Shown in pieces: positions 3,554 to 59,710 of a stretch of DNA of 64,000 nt. The notes beneath the pieces are model-generated. The model did not search any database and was not told the DNA's origin. It saw only the letters and a program-made list of their open reading frames with translations. Position numbers and translations under genes: made by a program. Numbering within the stretch: position 1 is the first letter of the stretch; each line of letters starts with the position of its first letter. The DNA lies in the NCBI GenBank assembly GCA_018015315.1, contig GCA_018015315.1_3629.1; one strand, given 5' to 3'. The stretch comes from a phage.

Positions 3554-3819
3554 TGGCTACTAGCATTGTATTCAATTCTAAGGTGAAGAACAAAAAGCGT
3601 GCAGACAGTTTTCCGTGTGGGACCGTGGTAAGTTGCGACGGAGACGGCATTCAAAACATAGTTATGATTGTCAAAACAGGAGAACATTGTGTGTGGGGGT
3701 TCGATTTAGAAAATAATGAGTTGTACGATCTGCCGCCAAACATGAAAGTTACAGAGCTTGACACCAAAATTACCATCCTTGGAGAGGCAAGCTATTCAAA
3801 AGAAGGAGGAGAACAATGA
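3553..3819 (+). CDS. small hypothetical protein, paralog 2
   Basis: 88 aa; start overlaps the previous stop (ATAATGG); same motifs as paralog 1. Confidence 0.6.
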   Translation: MATSIVFNSKVKNKKRADSFPCGTVVSCDGDGIQNIVMIVKTGEHCVWGFDLENNELYDLPPNMKVTELDTKITILGEASYSKEGGEQ

Positions 3820-5024: not shown

Positions 5025-5591
5025 ATGGCGGTCAATGTGGCTTACAACACAGGAAAGCTTGACAGAGACATTGGGTGTCTTGTCCTTTCAGATACAGAAG
5101 AGTATTGGGGTTATGGGTTGCTGTCAGACCCACACCCGAGCAACCTTGTATCAACAGTGCTATACCGCTACGACCCTGTGCCAACGGTACACGACAAAGA
5201 CATTCACGACCTCCGGATCAAGTGTCTGGAAGATCTGCTGAACAATGGTTGCAACGATCTGCGGGTAGCCAAAGAGAAGCTTACAAACATTCACAAAGAG
5301 GAAGTGATGAGCACCCTCAGTAAGAGATCAGTGCACAAAAAGATGATGCTGAACTTTGCAATGGGTATCTACATGGACGGGTATAAGGGAGGTGATCCGA
5401 TTCTCAAGCTTCGCTGCCCAACACTGTGGGAAAGAGTGGTTGACAGTAAGGACGGTACTGCCCTGCTTGAGCTACACACTGCAGGTTGGATTTGGAGGTA
5501 TGTGGACGGATACCCTCTGTGGGCATGTGGACCTGGGGAATTTGTTGACAGACCTAGCGCGGTGGTGGACTTACTATTGCAGTTTGAATAA
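5025..5591 (+). CDS. hypothetical protein
   Basis: 188-aa ORF in the operon frame series; shorter overlapping ORFs in other frames judged spurious. Confidence 0.5.
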   Translation: MAVNVAYNTGKLDRDIGCLVLSDTEEYWGYGLLSDPHPSNLVSTVLYRYDPVPTVHDKDIHDLRIKCLEDLLNNGCNDLRVAKEKLTNIHKEEVMSTLSKRSVHKKMMLNFAMGIYMDGYKGGDPILKLRCPTLWERVVDSKDGTALLELHTAGWIWRYVDGYPLWACGPGEFVDRPSAVVDLLLQFE

Positions 5592-5648: not shown

Positions 5649-5924
5649 ATGACGAAAGAAGAGGCCGACGTATTAGATTTTGCACTAGAGGCTACGCAGG
5701 AGGCTTTGGTGTTAGCTTGGAAAATGAACCAGCGTGCTGCAGAATGCAACCGCCGCATCAATGAGATTCTGGGCATGTCCATGTATGATTTCACTATGCA
5801 TGCTGGAGAGATTCCTGAATTAACTGCAGAGATGAATGATCTTGACAATAAGATTAATATCATTCTGAAGACAGCAGAAACAACTCACCAAACCGCCCGT
5901 AAATTTATCAACGAGAAGGTGTGA
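5649..5924 (+). CDS. hypothetical protein
   Basis: 91-aa ORF; AGGAGAGA RBS upstream. Confidence 0.5.
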   Translation: MTKEEADVLDFALEATQEALVLAWKMNQRAAECNRRINEILGMSMYDFTMHAGEIPELTAEMNDLDNKINIILKTAETTHQTARKFINEKV

Positions 5925-39407: not shown

Positions 39408-40319
39408 TTATTTCCCGTTAACTTTGTTGTAGTTTCCCTGCTCAGATGGGACTATGGTAGAAGGTCTTCCATATTCCTGATAATACCAATCCGCAGCCGA
39501 TTGGGTAACACCGTTTTCATCTGTCCACATCATAGATTTGTATGGCTGCCACTCCTCTGCAGCGTTTGTGGATGCAGTGTCTGCGAATGCTCCTGTGTCC
39601 CTCTTGTTACCTACGTTACTACCATTCTTACAGTCGTTGACAGCGCCTTTTTGTTGGGTCTTGCCTACTTTCTTAGGATTGCTGTATACAGTTGCATTAA
39701 CAACCTTATTCAAGTAGAATGTGCGGAACTCTGTAAGTTCTACATCAAACACCATTGCAGCGCCTTCACCAACAGACTTGTTGGCAGAAAGACTGGTTAT
39801 GATGTAGTTCTCAAGAAGTCTCTCCTCGGTAACCAAAGAAACCAACTGTCGCTTATTGATAATCTCAGTCAAAGCCTCCAATGCAGCGCCTGGTCGCATA
39901 GATGCTGCAGGGTTTTTAGAGTCAGTATTCCTATCAATGTAGTTTTGCTCATAGATTATGTGTGGGGATGTATTTACCCTACCAGTAAAAGAAAATACAC
40001 CATCTTTAATTACAGCGTGGTCTGACAGGGTAGATTTATCTTCCACCGCAAACCCAGTCTTATCAACAGAATGTTTGAAAGAGTAATTCTCAACCTGATC
40101 GAAGATAATGGCAAGATCGTTAGTAAAGTTTTTACCCTTCATCTCCGTATTGCGACCGCCATAGTTAAGACCGCTGACAAACATAGTGTACTTTACATCG
40201 CTTTCAGTTTGCTGCTCTGCCTTTTCAGCCTTTGGAGATTTAACCTCTTGAGGCTTGTACAGGTCTTTTTCATCAACTATATTGCTTGGCATAACCTCTC
40301 CAGGACACTCCGATACCAT
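39408..40319 (-). CDS. hypothetical tail protein (distal tail)
   Basis: 303-aa ORF immediately downstream of the tape measure gene. Confidence 0.5.
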   Translation of the reverse strand: MVSECPGEVMPSNIVDEKDLYKPQEVKSPKAEKAEQQTESDVKYTMFVSGLNYGGRNTEMKGKNFTNDLAIIFDQVENYSFKHSVDKTGFAVEDKSTLSDHAVIKDGVFSFTGRVNTSPHIIYEQNYIDRNTDSKNPAASMRPGAALEALTEIINKRQLVSLVTEERLLENYIITSLSANKSVGEGAAMVFDVELTEFRTFYLNKVVNATVYSNPKKVGKTQQKGAVNDCKNGSNVGNKRDTGAFADTASTNAAEEWQPYKSMMWTDENGVTQSAADWYYQEYGRPSTIVPSEQGNYNKVNGK

Positions 40320-40397: not shown

Positions 40398-42734
40398 TTA
40401 CCAAAGGTCGGTAGACATGAAGTTGATATCTTTATTGTTCTCCCACTCAAGTTTTGCATCAAATATTTTGTTAAACTCACCCTCATCTATTGAAATCGTG
40501 ATTTTCCCATCACTGATCTCTAAAGGTAGCATTTCCATAGTTCTTAATTGAGAAGCAAAACCAGGGCCACCCGGCAACGGAAGAGTCCCGCCAGGCAAGG
40601 TGTCCAAAGGATTAACAAACCCGTTACCTCCCGATATGATATCTTTGCGAATCATATCGCTGATAGTATCCAGCTGCTGATTTCTTTCACTTAGTGGGTT
40701 GTAACGGTCATTAAATAATTCCCCGGCGCTTAGTATTGTACCGATAATACCCAGCTTACCGAGCAGACCAACTTTGCCACCAGGTGTCTTGAGGCCACCT
40801 CCACCTTTTCCTGCCGGAGCTCCACCACCAGACCCTTCTGTAGTAGCGGCACCCGCTGCTCCAGCTGCACCCCTTAGAGAGTTAAGGAATTTAAAGGTTT
40901 TTACAAGCATGGATGCCATGACAAAACCTTTTGTTAGGGCGTTGACTACCAGCATGATGGCAGCAGCAAACCCTGCCCATTTAGCATAGCTAAAGGTGTC
41001 ATGAAGCTCTTCAGAATATTCCTTCGTCTTAGCTGTTATGAATCCCCATTTAATCCCCCATTCAAGGAAAAACATGCGGATCTTGACTATAGTGTTGTTT
41101 AGTTCACCAACTACCCAGTTAAGGCCTCTCACAAACCCGCTAACAAAATCACCAGAGGCATCCCACACAAATTGCAGAGTCTCACCAGTGCGGATTAGTG
41201 TATAATAGAACTCTGTTAGTTCGTCAGACCAACGGGTGAACAGTTTCTGACGAGTCAGTTCGATGAAGGTTTTCAGTCTGTTTTCTGCCAGCACGTTAGA
41301 CTTCTGCATTCTTTCATAACCAGCTGCAGATGCCTCGTTCATGTACTTAGCCACATACTTCATGATCTTGGCTGTTTTAACCTCACCTTTCTTCATCATG
41401 TCCATGAACTGATCCATGGAGAGTTCAGAAAGACCAAAAGCCTCTTTGGTGGCCTTGATAAAAGGTTCGTATGCACCAGGCAATGCTTCAGCAAGTTGTT
41501 GCTTCAGTTCTTCGGACATTACTTGTCCCTTGCCAAGCATCTGTTGGATTGCCATAATACCGCGCTGGTATTTTACCTCATCGGCACCATAAGCAGCAGC
41601 ATACTGGGAGTATGCAGAAAACAGCTCATGCACTTCCTGATTTGTCATCTGGTTTTTGGCGTTTACCGACATCTGGGCGTAACCTTGAAGACCAGATTTG
41701 AGATCAAAACCAAGACGCATAGCCTCTTGCTGGACAAACGCAACCTCACTGTTAGCTTTGTTTGGATCTCCAGTAACAGCTGTAAGAGCAGCACTTGCCC
41801 CCTCCATCATGTGACCGGATCTGTTAACCGCAGCAAATCCAGAAAAAGCCGTATACGCAGCTGTTGCATTAATAACAGATCTACGTAGGTCTCTCATGGC
41901 ATCGCCTAGTGTAAGCGTTTGGCTGGTGGCGCTTTTAAACCCAGACTGCAGCGCTGACAGGTGGGCGTTAAAGGTTGACTTCTTCATCTCCCCGCGAGCA
42001 AACCTGGACTCTAACTCTGAGTATCCTGGCAAGCTTCCACGGAATCCGGCCCCATACTTGGCAGAAAGTCTTATCGCTGAGTTGTAGAGGTGGGTTCTCC
42101 TTGCCTCACGATCCGACATAAGCCTATTATCCATACCAGCTTTACTGTCTCTTCTTAGCTGTCTATGATAACGATTCATAGCGGCTGTCTGAGCTTTCAC
42201 AAGGTTAGGGTCGGAAGCCACACCACCCATATTAGGGTTACCGGGGATATATTTGAAAGATTTGGCATTAGCCAAAACTCTTGCCTTAGGTGCCTTATAA
42301 CCACCGTAAGACACTGGTGCAGATTTGGCAGCCTTTTTGGCCTCTTTAGCTTGCTGCTGGTAGAACTTACGCATCCTAGCCATTTCTGGATTTTTAGCGG
42401 TAAGATTACCTACAGCTTGTTTACGTCTCGCATTCTCCCTACGTTCTATTGCAGCCCTTACTGCAGCCTCTTTCTTGGCCTGTGCTACGCTCTCTCTGTG
42501 CAGTTTAGCATTTGCCTGAGATTGCTGTCTGGCAACCCTCTGCATTGTCTGCTGGGTTTTAACAGCTACCGCCTGCCATCTACTCATGGGGTTGGATGAG
42601 TTAAAATCCTCGCCCAGTTTCCTGAACTCCCTCCCAATACTGCGAATTTTCTCTACAGCTTTTTTGTAGGAGGAGTTCTCTATCTCAAAGCCAATCTTGT
42701 TGACTGTTGTGGCAACTATTTTGTTTGTAGCCAT
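40398..42734 (-). CDS. tail tape measure protein
   Basis: 778 aa; Ala/Lys/Gln-rich helical N-terminal half, hydrophobic segment, Gly-rich stretch; directly downstream of the chaperone genes. Confidence 0.8.
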   Translation of the reverse strand: MATNKIVATTVNKIGFEIENSSYKKAVEKIRSIGREFRKLGEDFNSSNPMSRWQAVAVKTQQTMQRVARQQSQANAKLHRESVAQAKKEAAVRAAIERRENARRKQAVGNLTAKNPEMARMRKFYQQQAKEAKKAAKSAPVSYGGYKAPKARVLANAKSFKYIPGNPNMGGVASDPNLVKAQTAAMNRYHRQLRRDSKAGMDNRLMSDREARRTHLYNSAIRLSAKYGAGFRGSLPGYSELESRFARGEMKKSTFNAHLSALQSGFKSATSQTLTLGDAMRDLRRSVINATAAYTAFSGFAAVNRSGHMMEGASAALTAVTGDPNKANSEVAFVQQEAMRLGFDLKSGLQGYAQMSVNAKNQMTNQEVHELFSAYSQYAAAYGADEVKYQRGIMAIQQMLGKGQVMSEELKQQLAEALPGAYEPFIKATKEAFGLSELSMDQFMDMMKKGEVKTAKIMKYVAKYMNEASAAGYERMQKSNVLAENRLKTFIELTRQKLFTRWSDELTEFYYTLIRTGETLQFVWDASGDFVSGFVRGLNWVVGELNNTIVKIRMFFLEWGIKWGFITAKTKEYSEELHDTFSYAKWAGFAAAIMLVVNALTKGFVMASMLVKTFKFLNSLRGAAGAAGAATTEGSGGGAPAGKGGGGLKTPGGKVGLLGKLGIIGTILSAGELFNDRYNPLSERNQQLDTISDMIRKDIISGGNGFVNPLDTLPGGTLPLPGGPGFASQLRTMEMLPLEISDGKITISIDEGEFNKIFDAKLEWENNKDINFMSTDLW

Positions 42735-46602: not shown

Positions 46603-47079
46603 TTATTTTTGCTGTCCAATTTTAAAGGTTGCAGATTCCAGCAGCACATCGTAATGCCGCATAGCCTCGTTGAAGCCCTTCTCTTGTGCCCACTGCTCAC
46701 TAACAGTAGGGTTACTAAACTGACCAGCCTCAATAACAAACTGGATAGCTTTGGCCCCTGTGTCCCCCATCTGCTTAAGAATAGCCTCTGCACTTGATCC
46801 TCTAGCCATAGCTCTCAACAATTTTTCTGTCAAGGTCTGTAGTTGAGTGCTGTGAAATGCAAAAGCTGTCTCCATGAAATTGCGAACAGGCAGCCCGTTC
46901 CAACCGAAGTTGTGAATGGCTGCCAATGTTGCCATATTTAAGCCTGACGGGTGAGGTTCGTCATAAAAGCCGTAGGTTATTGTTTTACTTTCAAGTCTCA
47001 CAAGTTCTTTGTAGAAGCGATCTAAACGCTTTAGGTTGAACCTTGTTTGACATTTAACCTTTAGCATTATATCTCTCAC
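46603..47079 (-). CDS. putative head completion / connector protein
   Basis: 158-aa ORF in the head-tail joining block. Confidence 0.4.
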   Translation of the reverse strand: MRDIMLKVKCQTRFNLKRLDRFYKELVRLESKTITYGFYDEPHPSGLNMATLAAIHNFGWNGLPVRNFMETAFAFHSTQLQTLTEKLLRAMARGSSAEAILKQMGDTGAKAIQFVIEAGQFSNPTVSEQWAQEKGFNEAMRHYDVLLESATFKIGQQK

Positions 47080-56205: not shown

Positions 56206-56304
56206 GGTGCTAGGTGATGGAATCGAACCATCTATGTATTCAACGACTACCTCGTCTATTTTCAGGATTAAAAATCCTCGCCCTTGCCAAAGGGCTTACC
56301 TAGC
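56206..56304 (-). tRNA. atypical tRNA-like gene (possible anticodon UUU, ~30-nt extra region)
   Basis: Perfect acceptor (GCTAGGT/ACCTAGC), D-arm (GCCC-TTTGGCAA-GGGC) and T-arm (GATGG-TTCGATT-CCATC), but 4-bp anticodon stem and an unusually long region before the T-arm. Confidence 0.4.
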
Positions 56305-57874: not shown

Positions 57875-58084
57875 TCAACAGATTCCGGCCTTATCTCGCC
57901 TGTCTGTGTATTCTTTAATCGCAACCTCATCTGCATTAGTGACCAGGTCTTCAAAGTAACTCTCAAGCTCCTCGTCAATGTCAGGAGACCAGCCCTTTTT
58001 CCTGTCAGTGTGAATCGCAGACTTGTTAAACTTAGTACAGTTCTTTGCTACCGGATTGTTCATTAAGCACCCCTCAGCGTTCAT
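57875..58084 (-). CDS. hypothetical protein
   Basis: 69-aa ORF overlapping the upstream gene end by 11 nt. Confidence 0.4.
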   Translation of the reverse strand: MNAEGCLMNNPVAKNCTKFNKSAIHTDRKKGWSPDIDEELESYFEDLVTNADEVAIKEYTDRRDKAGIC

Positions 58085-58652
58085 AGTAAATCTTATTTAA
58101 CATTACCTCATCCTTTGCAGAAAGGATATCTAGATATGCATCACCGAATCTACCTGCAACAACCTCTGCATGATACATCACTTCGTTAATATCGTCAAGA
58201 GTGATAACTGGATGACCGTATCTCTCTGAGTATTGTCTCAGAGTGCGATGTAGGGAGTCATCATCATAGGCAGACTTTTTAATATCACAAACACGACGAA
58301 TAGCCTTGATGTCGAAAAACCCTGTACGATACCAACCAAGAAAAAGGTTTCGTGCAGTGTCAACATCTACATCAATACCATTAAGAACCTTATCTACAAG
58401 ATAGCTGTCATCCTTTGGACCAGCTTCCTTAGTGCGAATGTAGTTGCCATCTTTTCCAGGTGACATCTCCTTCTCATCACCAACCTGCATGCCATCATTT
58501 GGCGGTGTTAGCCACTTATCCGGATGCTTACGATCACGAGCGTTAGAATGATTACGCTGGAAACCAGGCTTCCACTTGAAAGTTTTCTCCATCTGTTCTT
58601 CATTCTGATAACGTTTTGCAATCTTTTCACGGTCATCTTTGCGTGAACCCAT
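58074..58652 (-). CDS. hypothetical protein
   Basis: 192-aa ORF with GAGGAGG RBS. Confidence 0.55.
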   Translation of the reverse strand: MGSRKDDREKIAKRYQNEEQMEKTFKWKPGFQRNHSNARDRKHPDKWLTPPNDGMQVGDEKEMSPGKDGNYIRTKEAGPKDDSYLVDKVLNGIDVDVDTARNLFLGWYRTGFFDIKAIRRVCDIKKSAYDDDSLHRTLRQYSERYGHPVITLDDINEVMYHAEVVAGRFGDAYLDILSAKDEVMLNKIYYER

Positions 58653-58780
58653 AGCTGCCTCCTCTTCAAGTTATAGAAAAACTCACTGTATCACTTTGTA
58701 ACGAGCTTTTCTATCAAACTGGTGCGATTGCATTACCTGGTATAGTTTATATAGCTGTGGAGCGATTTAGGGGCCTTCTT

Positions 58781-59025
58781 GTCAGTTTCCACACATAAAC
58801 TTCATCCAAGCTCGCGCGGGAGACTCTCAACCGACTCCTTACGGCGCTGGCAAGCTTTCGTCGGTGGTCCACATCAGTGCTCGGCCTTTGGCCTGCGCTA
58901 TCGCTTCGCTCCCACACATGTTAACAGACCTGCATGTATGCACTTCTGTTATTGTGTGCACCAAGGAGGCCCGGCATCTCGCCCATCGTAGGCGAGTGCC
59001 AATGAAGGGCCGACACTACCTATAG
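58781..59025. ncRNA. candidate structured non-coding RNA (GC-rich island, strand unknown)
   Basis: About 245 bp of GC-rich sequence in an AT-rich intergenic gap; ends can pair (GGCCTTC...GAAGGGCC); several internal hairpins; no credible ORF or RBS. Confidence 0.3.
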
Positions 59026-59155
59026 TAAGTAATAATTTTAAAACATGGTACTTAGGATCTAGTATATTCTACATAAGTTAAGTATATGTACTTAGTACCA
59101 TAAGTACTAGATCTTTTATTTTTTATTATTTAGTTATTTTAGTTATATTCTTTAT

Positions 59156-59236
59156 GTGTCCGTATCACGGACAGTTAGTGTCCGTATTACGGGCAGATGT
59201 GTCCGCGTGACGGACAGTAGTGTCCGTATCACGGAC
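59156..59236. repeat. array of four palindromic iterons (TGTCCGT-NNN-ACGGACA)
   Basis: Units start at 59156, 59178, 59199, 59220 (21-22 bp periodicity); units 1 and 4 identical, 2 and 3 differ by 1-2 bases; beside an AT-rich stretch with inverted repeats (GATCTAGTA 59055-59063 / TACTAGATC 59104-59112). Confidence 0.7.
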
Positions 59237-59312
59237 AGTTACTGACCTCTGTTCCAGAGCGAACATAAAACATACGAATCCTTATAGTACAGATATTTAA
59301 GTTTTTACTGGT

Positions 59313-59663
59313 CTAACCAGTTGTTGACATTCGAATAACCTCTTCTGGTGGCAAAACTTTGGAAAATGTACATCTTTTACCTCTCCCTTGTGTGGATATT
59401 TCAACCACTCCTGCACATTCTAAAGTTTTAACGCACGCTGCTGCTTTTGTTTTCTTTATCCCAACATCTGCTGCAATTTTCCTTGTGCTTGGTGTGAAGC
59501 GTGAATTTCCTCCAAGCTTATACCAGTTGTGCAGGTAGCAGTATACGATCTTGTCATATAAGTCAAGAACAACAACCTCCCCAGTTGTGTCATTCAAAAC
59601 TTTTGACATAGACAGTATTTCAAGGGGGACTTTAAGATATAGCAGCTTATCCCCATCTTTCAT
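59313..59663 (-). CDS. putative helix-turn-helix DNA-binding protein
   Basis: 116 aa; HTH-like segment TRKIAADVGIKKTKAAACVKTLECAGVV; adjacent to the iteron array. Confidence 0.55.
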   Translation of the reverse strand: MKDGDKLLYLKVPLEILSMSKVLNDTTGEVVVLDLYDKIVYCYLHNWYKLGGNSRFTPSTRKIAADVGIKKTKAAACVKTLECAGVVEISTQGRGKRCTFSKVLPPEEVIRMSTTG

Positions 59664-59710
59664 ATCTCCTGATTCTCCTTGTGTGGCAATTTTCTTTAAA
59701 ATAGCAGGGA

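Follow-up and report, generated by a model that had tools for sequence, protein, structure and literature searches.

ColE1 RNA II is an origin-proximal structured RNA, and the G+C-rich part of RK2 oriV is a GC-rich origin segment. The P4 CI RNA and the C4 RNA of P1 and P7 are processed immunity RNAs of satellite and plasmid phages. The cos sites of P2 and P4, and the cos or pac sites of PICIs, are cis-acting sites that a helper phage and its satellite have in common. Among rV5-like phages, PhiTE has an intergenic pseudo-ToxI non-coding RNA locus, which is related to the RNA of a system carried by a plasmid, and exchange has occurred between them (PMC3475682).

Here we analyzed a locus that resembles each of these systems in part. 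The window, by which we mean the whole 64,000-nt stretch of DNA under study, is from an rV5-like phage (Vequintavirus). A first description of it, made from the letters of the window (the sequence-only reading), had pointed to a GC-rich, structured island at 58781-59025 next to iterons and had offered three possibilities: a stable small RNA, a ribozyme-like element or horizontally acquired sequence. Comparison with relatives indicates that the island is a real, non-coding element under purifying selection and selected for its fold. We favor, with a probability of about 0.5, the reading that it is a transferable non-coding RNA module of ~250 nt, encoded on the minus strand and shared by a helper phage and satellite-like plasmids. 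We infer from sequence its status as an RNA, the strand that is read, its processing, its partner and the process that it serves.

The region 58650-59300 matched 119 phage records at 90-100% identity, all of them rV5-like myoviruses of ~135-140 kb. The island sits within a 660-bp gap flanked by two minus-strand genes. In the minus-strand sense, the HTH gene is followed by four iterons, ~130 bp of AT-rich DNA, the island, a 20-mer and the 192-aa gene, so that the proximity to iterons first noticed holds. The features around the island are:

59313..59663, minus strand: gene for a 116-aa HTH protein, putative replication initiator (Pfam and PHROG matches)
59156..59247: four iterons at 21-22 bp spacing with the palindrome GTCCGNNNNACGGAC in each (Tandem Repeats Finder)
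59026..59155: AT-rich spacer with short AT repeats, GC about 0.30
58720..58739: near-palindromic 20-mer TGGTGCGATTGCATTACCTG, matching plasmids by blastn at 95% over 20 nt
58074..58652, minus strand: 192-aa gene of unknown function, immediately downstream of the island in the minus-strand sense

The 116-aa protein matched PHROG 12838 ('replication initiation protein') with an E-value of 2.5e-80 and, in Pfam, HTH_36 and DUF6945, both just under the curated cut-offs. In the phage record search its gene was confined to the same 119 records as the island. Because four direct repeats at helical spacing are combined with an initiator-family gene and an AT-rich stretch, the neighborhood of the island, not the island itself, looks like an iteron-type origin. 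DnaA boxes (TTWTNCACA) were absent within 5 kb of the island. The cumulative GC skew reaches its minimum near 60.6 kb, but this coincides with a switch in gene orientation. The 20-mer TGGTGCGATTGCATTACCTG is inverted in the plasmids described below, at a similar distance from the core of the element (74 nt in the phage and 79 nt in the plasmid), and is probably a protein-binding site.

Several other features of this region were recorded. The ~55 nt upstream of the 192-aa gene (58653-58719; CCAGTTTGATAGAAAAGCTCGTTACAAAG.GATACAGTGAG) are near-invariant in all phages, including the divergent ones, and contain no sigma-70 consensus match; they are a candidate for a phage-specific promoter or leader. 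Imperfect inverted repeats around AGATCTAGTACTTA...TAAGTACCATG (59030-59110) occur in the AT-rich spacer, and in GAP31, a phage of a sister genus, the corresponding position carries repeats with AGATCT. Seven tRNA genes on the same (minus) strand are clustered ~2 kb beyond the 192-aa gene. Within this cluster, a tRNA-like gene of 97-99 nt (56206-56304, minus strand) was given a four-base anticodon and no amino acid by ARAGORN and scored just 37.5 bits with Rfam; database records call it tRNA-OTHER or tRNA-Lys, and it may be an intron-containing or otherwise unusual tRNA. Note that eighteen records (MG0656xx) named 'Campylobacter phage', with C. jejuni as host, share up to 99.7% identity with rV5-like phages of E. 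coli in this region, and their names or hosts look doubtful.

The GC-richness of the island against its surroundings was confirmed. The GC content of 58781-59025 is 0.559, versus 0.441 for the whole window; at 58800-58999 it is 0.585, versus 0.40-0.43 to the left and 0.305 on the AT-rich side (59000-59199). The conserved element extends slightly past the bounds first drawn, covering about 58765-59017. ORFs of 70 aa (plus strand) and of 56, 41 and 31 aa (minus strand) overlap it, none with a match among PHROG families. Small protein-coding genes, or the decayed remnant of one, would account for the 56-aa and 70-aa ORFs, for the two small hypothetical proteins annotated in records of the BASEL collection and for a plus-strand frame that is open over 71-86 codons in most copies. 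However, GC-rich sequence is expected to contain long open frames by chance, and neither codon periodicity nor a family match was found. Substitutions among 16 phage copies were distributed 34/29/29 over the codon phases, and the copies show 1-nt and 3-nt indels plus an 18-nt deletion. The open frames differ in length or frame among relatives, being shortened or shifted in Aya, pangalan, MaxTheCat and L118 (a divergent phage sequence, see below). Moreover, homology to the plasmids is limited to helices and loops, with whole arms swapped. We consider a coding origin very improbable. The judgment that the island holds no credible ORF was borne out, and the comparison gave no sign of a degenerate protein gene, the outcome that had been named as refuting. 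Two further candidates were rejected. An SD-like UAAGGAG with a UUG opening a 28-codon ORF meets an early stop in L118 and is absent from the plasmids, and the GGA (CsrA-type) motifs, about five by eye, are near chance expectation.

Folding of a 281-nt segment gave -102 kcal/mol (z -2.9) for the minus strand and -92.7 kcal/mol (z -2.0) for the plus strand, and both strands form several internal hairpins, as had been described. Since single-sequence folding only modestly beats shuffled sequences, the case for structure must rest on comparison. The pairing ends that had also been pointed out exist in the window (10 bp with one mismatch), but this helix is broken in most relatives, and we dropped it as a conserved feature. 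No intrinsic terminator (GC-rich hairpin plus U-tract) was detected on either strand of 58400-59700, and no promoter around the island with a scan for the sigma-70 consensus. The published rV5 promoter and terminator lists also contain nothing at the island.

Known RNA families did not account for the element. With Rfam 15, only tRNAs in the window exceeded the gathering score; a permissive search of 58500-59400 returned rli43 as the best hit (22.8 bits versus a gathering score of 100), mostly over AT-rich DNA. In the plasmids and the divergent phage, again only tRNAs were found. The families covered include the small ribozymes, ToxI, C4/CI RNA, pRNA, 6S, tmRNA, riboswitches and known phage RNAs. 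Thus, the covariance-model scan proposed as a check gave no family match, and the suggestion of a ribozyme-like element is unsupported. Tandem Repeats Finder, applied to 58650-59320, reported the iterons and AT-rich micro-repeats but no ToxI-like tandem direct repeats of ~34-40 nt. Unlike pseudo-ToxI of PhiTE, the island therefore has no tandem 36-nt repeats, and it differs further in having no ToxN-type partner, no Rfam match, and another genus and locus.

The island was present in 119 of 119 Vequintavirus records at 88-100% identity and, in a sensitive DNA search, nowhere else among 50,697 phage records. Between the window and the most divergent phages, identity of the 106-nt core (see below) is 0.90-0.98, versus 0.70-0.90 at the third codon positions of the adjacent gene. 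The core is thus more conserved than neighboring third codon positions, which argues for purifying selection. In GAP31, a comparable place is occupied by an initiator gene, iterons and AT-rich DNA, and a promoter comes directly after these. There is no GC island, and the covariance model of the element detects nothing. Searches with the model were also negative for comparable loci from a Mydovirus and from a Phapecoctavirus.

Outside phages, homologues of the island came up in E. coli genome and plasmid searches only in the unannotated DNA of small circular plasmids of 13.2-13.7 kb. One plasmid record of 39.6 kb is a trimer, and metagenome contigs of 13.9 and 15.5 kb also belong to the set. 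The members of the family are L011 (NZ_CP020521.1), L012, L013, L014, L112, L114 and L120-L124. The plasmids have the GC content of the phage (0.44), about one tenth of its genome size and 2-3 kb of non-coding DNA. Their products include a major capsid protein (PHROG 29), Dit-like baseplate, tail-completion and tape-measure proteins and small HTH proteins, with a weak match to replication initiators. No terminase family was annotated or detected among the plasmid proteins tested. Amino acid identity to proteins of the window is ~53% (39606-40163), 48% (46639-46980) and 38-51% (tape-measure, 41439-42392). At the nucleotide level this short non-coding stretch is the best match between the phage and the plasmids, which have an incomplete set of virion genes. 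The plasmids are without the phage iterons, and their own iterons differ from plasmid to plasmid; the order of iterons, island homologue, 20-mer, promoters and genes is alike in all plasmids and in the phage. The gene content suggests that these plasmids are probably undescribed satellites, or reduced relatives, of Vequintavirus; a helper relationship would be consistent with the shared genes and the shared element. Literature searches returned no paper describing the plasmids, and nothing specific on satellites, non-coding RNAs or origins of Vequintavirus.

Upstream of the plasmid core lie 1-4 extra modules, each made of UGUGUGUGGG and then 1-3 tight hairpins, of which one has a C(UUCG)G loop. 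The array is closed in most plasmids, in plus orientation, by a terminator-like hairpin (GCCUAAAGAG...CUCUUUAGGC plus UUUCAUUU). The sigma-70 promoters predicted for the downstream operon are located beyond the element; in L011 (2563-3069), a near-consensus sigma-70 promoter (TTGACA-17-TATAAT) is found ~470 nt upstream of the capsid operon. The octamer TGTGTGGG occurs 10-11 times per plasmid (L011 and L112) versus 0.3-0.4 expected, a 25- to 30-fold excess, and nine times in the window versus 2.7 expected, with one site at 58911; the match at 3690 was set aside as lying inside a gene. In L011 the octamer switches strand at the iterons and at the convergent gene junction, and is thus co-oriented with transcription and presumed replication. 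The long leader of the L011 capsid operon contains another copy of it.

Alignment of the phage copies, and their comparison with the plasmids, divided the element into the parts listed below. All element sequences are given in minus-strand orientation.

58765..59017, minus strand: whole conserved element, comprising a 5' clamp hairpin, a variable hairpin, the 106-nt core and a 3' tail (11-16 phage copies aligned)
58968..59011, minus strand: 5' domain (clamp), in which the outer helix GGCCC/GGGCC encloses GGCA-CUCGCC...GGCGAG-A-UGCC
58913..58958, minus strand: variable hairpin (domain 2), whose base CACACA/UGUGUG competes with the 5' strand of helix H1
58813..58918, minus strand: 106-nt core domain, single copy in the window
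58909..58917, minus strand: 5' strand of helix H1, GUGUGGGAG, pairing with 58814-58822
58860..58865, minus strand: 5' strand of helix P, ACCGAC, 100% paired in 15 distinct sequences
58836..58859, minus strand: 24-nt loop of helix P, GAAAGCUUGCCAGCGCCGKAAGGA, invariant except for one G/U position
58830..58835, minus strand: 3' strand of helix P, GUCGGU, partner of ACCGAC
58814..58822, minus strand: 3' strand of helix H1, CUCCCGCGC, pairing kept in variants
58765..58812, minus strand: 3' tail with the motif GGCCCCUAAAU, common to the plasmids (phage/plasmid comparison)

The core starts with UGUGUGGG and ends with CCCGCGCG, and an internal AAUGUGGA precedes helix P. Most of the 17 distinct cores fold independently into one architecture. 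Helix P differs between classes of the element. It is ACCGAC/GUCGGU in phages and GCUGCC/GGCAGC in type-1 plasmids, with three of six pairs changed on both sides and the same loop. At the same place, the type-2 plasmids (L120-L123) have an 8-bp helix of unrelated sequence, GUCCGGAU/AUCCGGAC, and another loop, and they retain UGUGUGGG, AAUGUGGA and GAGUCUCCCGCGCG. The invariance of the 24-nt loop across phages and type-1 plasmids, with the arms of the helix swapped, points to a displayed recognition surface. The loop had no second copy or complement within the window and no match in the E. coli chromosome, and no pairing target for it was found in the window or in E. coli genomes. An exact 18-mer of the loop gave 95 matches in 596 Gb of genomes. 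The four that were inspected showed no similarity past the 18-mer, and the rest, nearly all in unrelated, mostly high-GC taxa, were discarded as fitting chance.

The hairpins upstream of the core show the same kind of change. The inner hairpin of the 5' domain (58973-59000) is represented in plasmid L011 by GUCA-CUCUCC...GGAGAG-A-UGAC, which amounts to two double changes of G-C to U-A, and in the remaining plasmids the position of the 5' domain is taken by the unrelated hairpin GCCUAAAGAG...CUCUUUAGGC. In domain 2, Murica, MaxTheCat and O157 typing phage 5 lack 18 nt, and what remains is a perfect hairpin, though a shorter one; L118 has ACAGC/GCUGU in place of ACAGA/UCUGU (A-U to C-G), and two mismatches have become C-G and G-U in Aya.

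Helix H1 forms in the isolated-core folds of most of the 17 distinct cores, and two of its U-G pairs are invariant in the 17 sequences, across all classes. Its 3' strand varies (CUUCC in L118, CUCGCGC in L120 and L128, UUCCGCGCGCG in L122), and pairing is maintained through G-U pairs or matched length; in L122, a longer (UG) run stands opposite a longer (CG) run. Clean double-sided covariation was not seen in H1. In the full-length minimum free energy (MFE) fold of the window sequence H1 is absent, and UGUGUG pairs with the upstream CACACA instead; the two helices are mutually exclusive.

In a model-based alignment of the 17 sequences, 96.3% of cells at paired positions could pair, compared to 34-50% when the partners were slid. 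The covariation score was 0.161, versus 0.085 for shuffled alignments, with 0 of 500 reaching 0.161. The type-2 alignment was 98% paired and contained one double change (C-G to U-A in helix P of the phage paralogue); as it comprises only five sequences, its covariation is not significant alone. We also built two covariance models, R1 from phage and type-1 sequences and R2 from type-2 sequences only. R1 detected the core with 136 bits (E 2e-31), and R2, built without phage-type sequences, gave a full-length match at 58809-58922 of the window with an E-value of 0.26. Each model detected the classes it was not built from, with full-length matches whose coordinates and strand agreed, and each found exactly one copy in the window. 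Compensatory changes among relatives, put forward earlier as a check, were thus found between phage, satellite-plasmid and paralogue copies. Helices that keep their pairing while their sequences are swapped across classes indicate that selection acts on the fold. Note that most double changes trace to few between-class events, which makes the evidence strong for helix P and the hairpins and weaker for H1.

The type-2 core had no match among the 50,697 phage records. In IMG/VR, which yielded one related contig only, the type-2 loop occurs once, in a divergent rV5-like contig of 137,418 bp that also bears the phage-type island. The type-2 second copy (L128, 198-311) is inserted between the orthologues of the window genes 5025-5591 and 5649-5924, which in the window are separated by just 57 nt. 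It has hairpins upstream, and a good promoter (TTGCAA-17-TATAGT) follows after 24 nt and then a gene; there are no visible iterons in the ~200 nt upstream. The C-G to U-A change in its helix P is compensatory. The phage-type island of the divergent lineage (L118) is kept beside a different initiator and different iterons, a swap of origin specificity. At L118:1319-1900 (IMGVR_UViG_3300010279_000001), a 143-aa HTH protein and ATTTGYATCAGAT-type repeats replace the 116-aa initiator and the GTCCG...CGGAC iterons. Given a type-2 copy at another locus and an island that is kept when initiator and iterons change, the element behaves as a self-contained module that can be moved and that lies often, but not always, beside the origin. 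The proposal of horizontal acquisition gains from the absence of the island from the GAP31 origin region, from the plasmid homologues and from the second-locus insertion; these observations are compatible with either direction of transfer.

A shared stretch of this kind recalls P4, which carries the cos site of P2, and we asked how well a packaging (pac-type) site of the helper terminase, copied by satellites that have none, would fit. Packaging mimicry predicts a sequence common to the helper and the terminase-less plasmid. Such a sequence is present, and it is their best nucleotide-level match. The plasmid size of about one tenth of the phage genome and the one trimer record would also suit packaging, and rV5 has been reported to be circularly permuted, which means headful packaging. 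However, the known pac and cos sites are recognized in duplex DNA, and swapping both arms of an inverted repeat would therefore not be expected to preserve such a site; the type-2 helix and loop are without counterpart in the 50,697 phage records; and one phage carries two different copies. We regard a packaging site as quite unlikely. Compared to the P2/P4 cos and PICI sites, conservation here lies in intramolecular pairing with swapped arms, there is no known cleavage or end, and there are two classes, one of them without a partner in the phage collection; the helper link is itself presumed.

We next consider whether the conserved fold is that of an RNA, and on which strand. Single-stranded DNA would form all the hairpins equally well, H1 excepted. 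One-sided changes nevertheless produce G-U pairs on the minus strand and A-C mismatches on the plus strand, as in CUCGCGC (L120, L128) and UUCC (L122). At the base of helix P, a one-sided change of A to G in Aya and L118 likewise gives G-U on the minus strand, and the type-2 helices contain further invariant G-U pairs. The minus strand is the more stable in 9 of 11 full elements, and alifold energies are -56.5 (minus) versus -49.5 (plus). For the window core the values are -40.1 (z -1.8) versus -33.0 (z -0.15), and for the L121 core -42.8 (z -4.1) versus -33.2 (z -3.5). Finally, the orientation from UGUGUGG to CGCGCG agrees with that of the local genes in three settings: the window, the plasmids and the second locus in the divergent phage. 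The G-U pairs, the folding energies and the co-orientation with local transcription in three contexts favor a minus-strand RNA, which we consider probable. In rV5, the published lists predict no terminator between the sigma-70 promoter P081 and the island region. As to the stable small RNA proposed earlier, its structure, its non-coding nature and a constraint exceeding that of synonymous sites hold up, while its existence as an RNA is a prediction.

An RNA from the plus strand, directed toward the AT-rich region and the iterons, could serve as a primer like ColE1 RNA II or as a small RNA. It would make sense of the plasmid arrays, most of which end in plus orientation with the terminator-like hairpin and UUUCAUUU, of a weak divergent promoter ~490 nt upstream in the plasmids (TTGTCA-16-AATTAT, 9/12) and of the 20-mer just upstream at a similar spacing in phage and plasmid (74 vs 79 nt). 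On the other hand, folds of the plus strand are weaker, and A-C mismatches take the place of H1 and of several conserved wobble pairs. No U-tract follows the end hairpin in the phages and L011. In the phages, no conserved promoter was found with the sigma-70 consensus scan left of the island or in the rV5 list, and the -10-like stretch varies between phages. A plus-strand RNA of any kind is therefore unlikely in our view, and so is its use as a primer or small RNA. ColE1 RNA II and the G+C-rich part of RK2 oriV resemble the island in being folded and GC-rich, beyond iterons and an AT-rich stretch and by an initiator gene. In contrast, the favored strand of the island reads away from the origin, and neither a promoter nor an RNase H site nor an antisense partner was identified; the island is moreover absent from the GAP31 origin region and present at a non-origin locus.

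The same observations bear on a role of the DNA itself. The GC-rich hairpins could form in the single strands, or as cruciforms, once the initiator opens the AT-rich DNA, and would mark where the phage helicase-primase is loaded or primes; plasmids would carry the element for the helper replisome. The adjacent gene belongs to a replication-initiator family, and the order of iterons, AT-rich DNA and island is kept in the window, in the lineage with the swapped initiator and next to the unrelated iterons of the plasmids. Several of the loops are triloops, and GCGAAGC, which is present in the phage core, is a very stable DNA mini-hairpin. However, GAP31 has an initiator, iterons and AT-rich DNA but no island, the type-2 copy lies at a locus without visible iterons in ~200 nt upstream, there are no DnaA boxes nearby, and RNA accounts better than DNA for the conserved U-G and G-U pairs and for the difference in stability between the strands. 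An origin DNA structure thus appears unlikely, and a role at the DNA level only, whether as origin structure or as packaging site, is a minority possibility.

The preferred reading, a minus-strand RNA module, has its own difficulties. The sigma-70 and terminator scans predicted no promoter or terminator of its own in the window, and the terminator-like hairpin of the plasmids faces the plus orientation. H1 is missing from the full-length MFE of the window and has no clean double-sided covariation, and the covariation as a whole comes from few between-class events, which limits its statistics. A search of the window and of E. coli genomes found no binding partner or target.

Under the minus-strand RNA reading, the element would be read from the strand that carries all neighboring genes and the downstream tRNA cluster, as part of an early minus-strand transcript spanning initiator gene and origin region. 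The (UG)n/(CG)n helix H1 would close a 106-nt multi-hairpin domain, in which the 6-bp helix P would display the invariant 24-nt loop. The clamp hairpin and the closed core may then persist as a stable, processed RNA, with the invariant loop and the junction as a putative docking surface for a phage-encoded or host factor. The plasmids, in which the module occupies the equivalent place relative to their own iterons and the 20-mer, could couple to the same phage process and would plug into it at the level of early or origin-proximal control. A more speculative extension, to which we assign a low probability, is that the RNA serves as a 'handshake' of a new helper-satellite system, in which a phage factor that controls origin firing, early gene expression or packaging reads the loop. 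Satellites of about 13.5 kb, with a capsid gene of their own and borrowed homologues of tail genes, would have copied the RNA in two specificity classes, and phages would capture satellite-type copies in their turn, as in an arms race at the RNA level.

A processed RNA of this kind would resemble the P4 CI and P1/P7 C4 RNAs in being a structured RNA in a control region. The short motif UGUGUGGG recurs along one direction of transcription, and its copies could pair with one complementary CG-rich strand. In contrast to these immunity RNAs, the island has no Rfam C4 match and is present in a strictly lytic helper, and its target pairing is a prediction.

In conclusion, rV5-like phages are common in E. 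coli phage collections and in biocontrol, and their ~660-bp gap has been left unannotated or given dubious small ORFs. We advise against carrying over the small ORFs that some records annotate in it. If the preferred reading is true, this gap holds a new family of structured RNA beside a likely origin. It would also mean that an unrecognized family of small plasmids shares tail-gene homologues and this element with the phages, and that an interaction between a lytic phage and a plasmid satellite would be directly testable.
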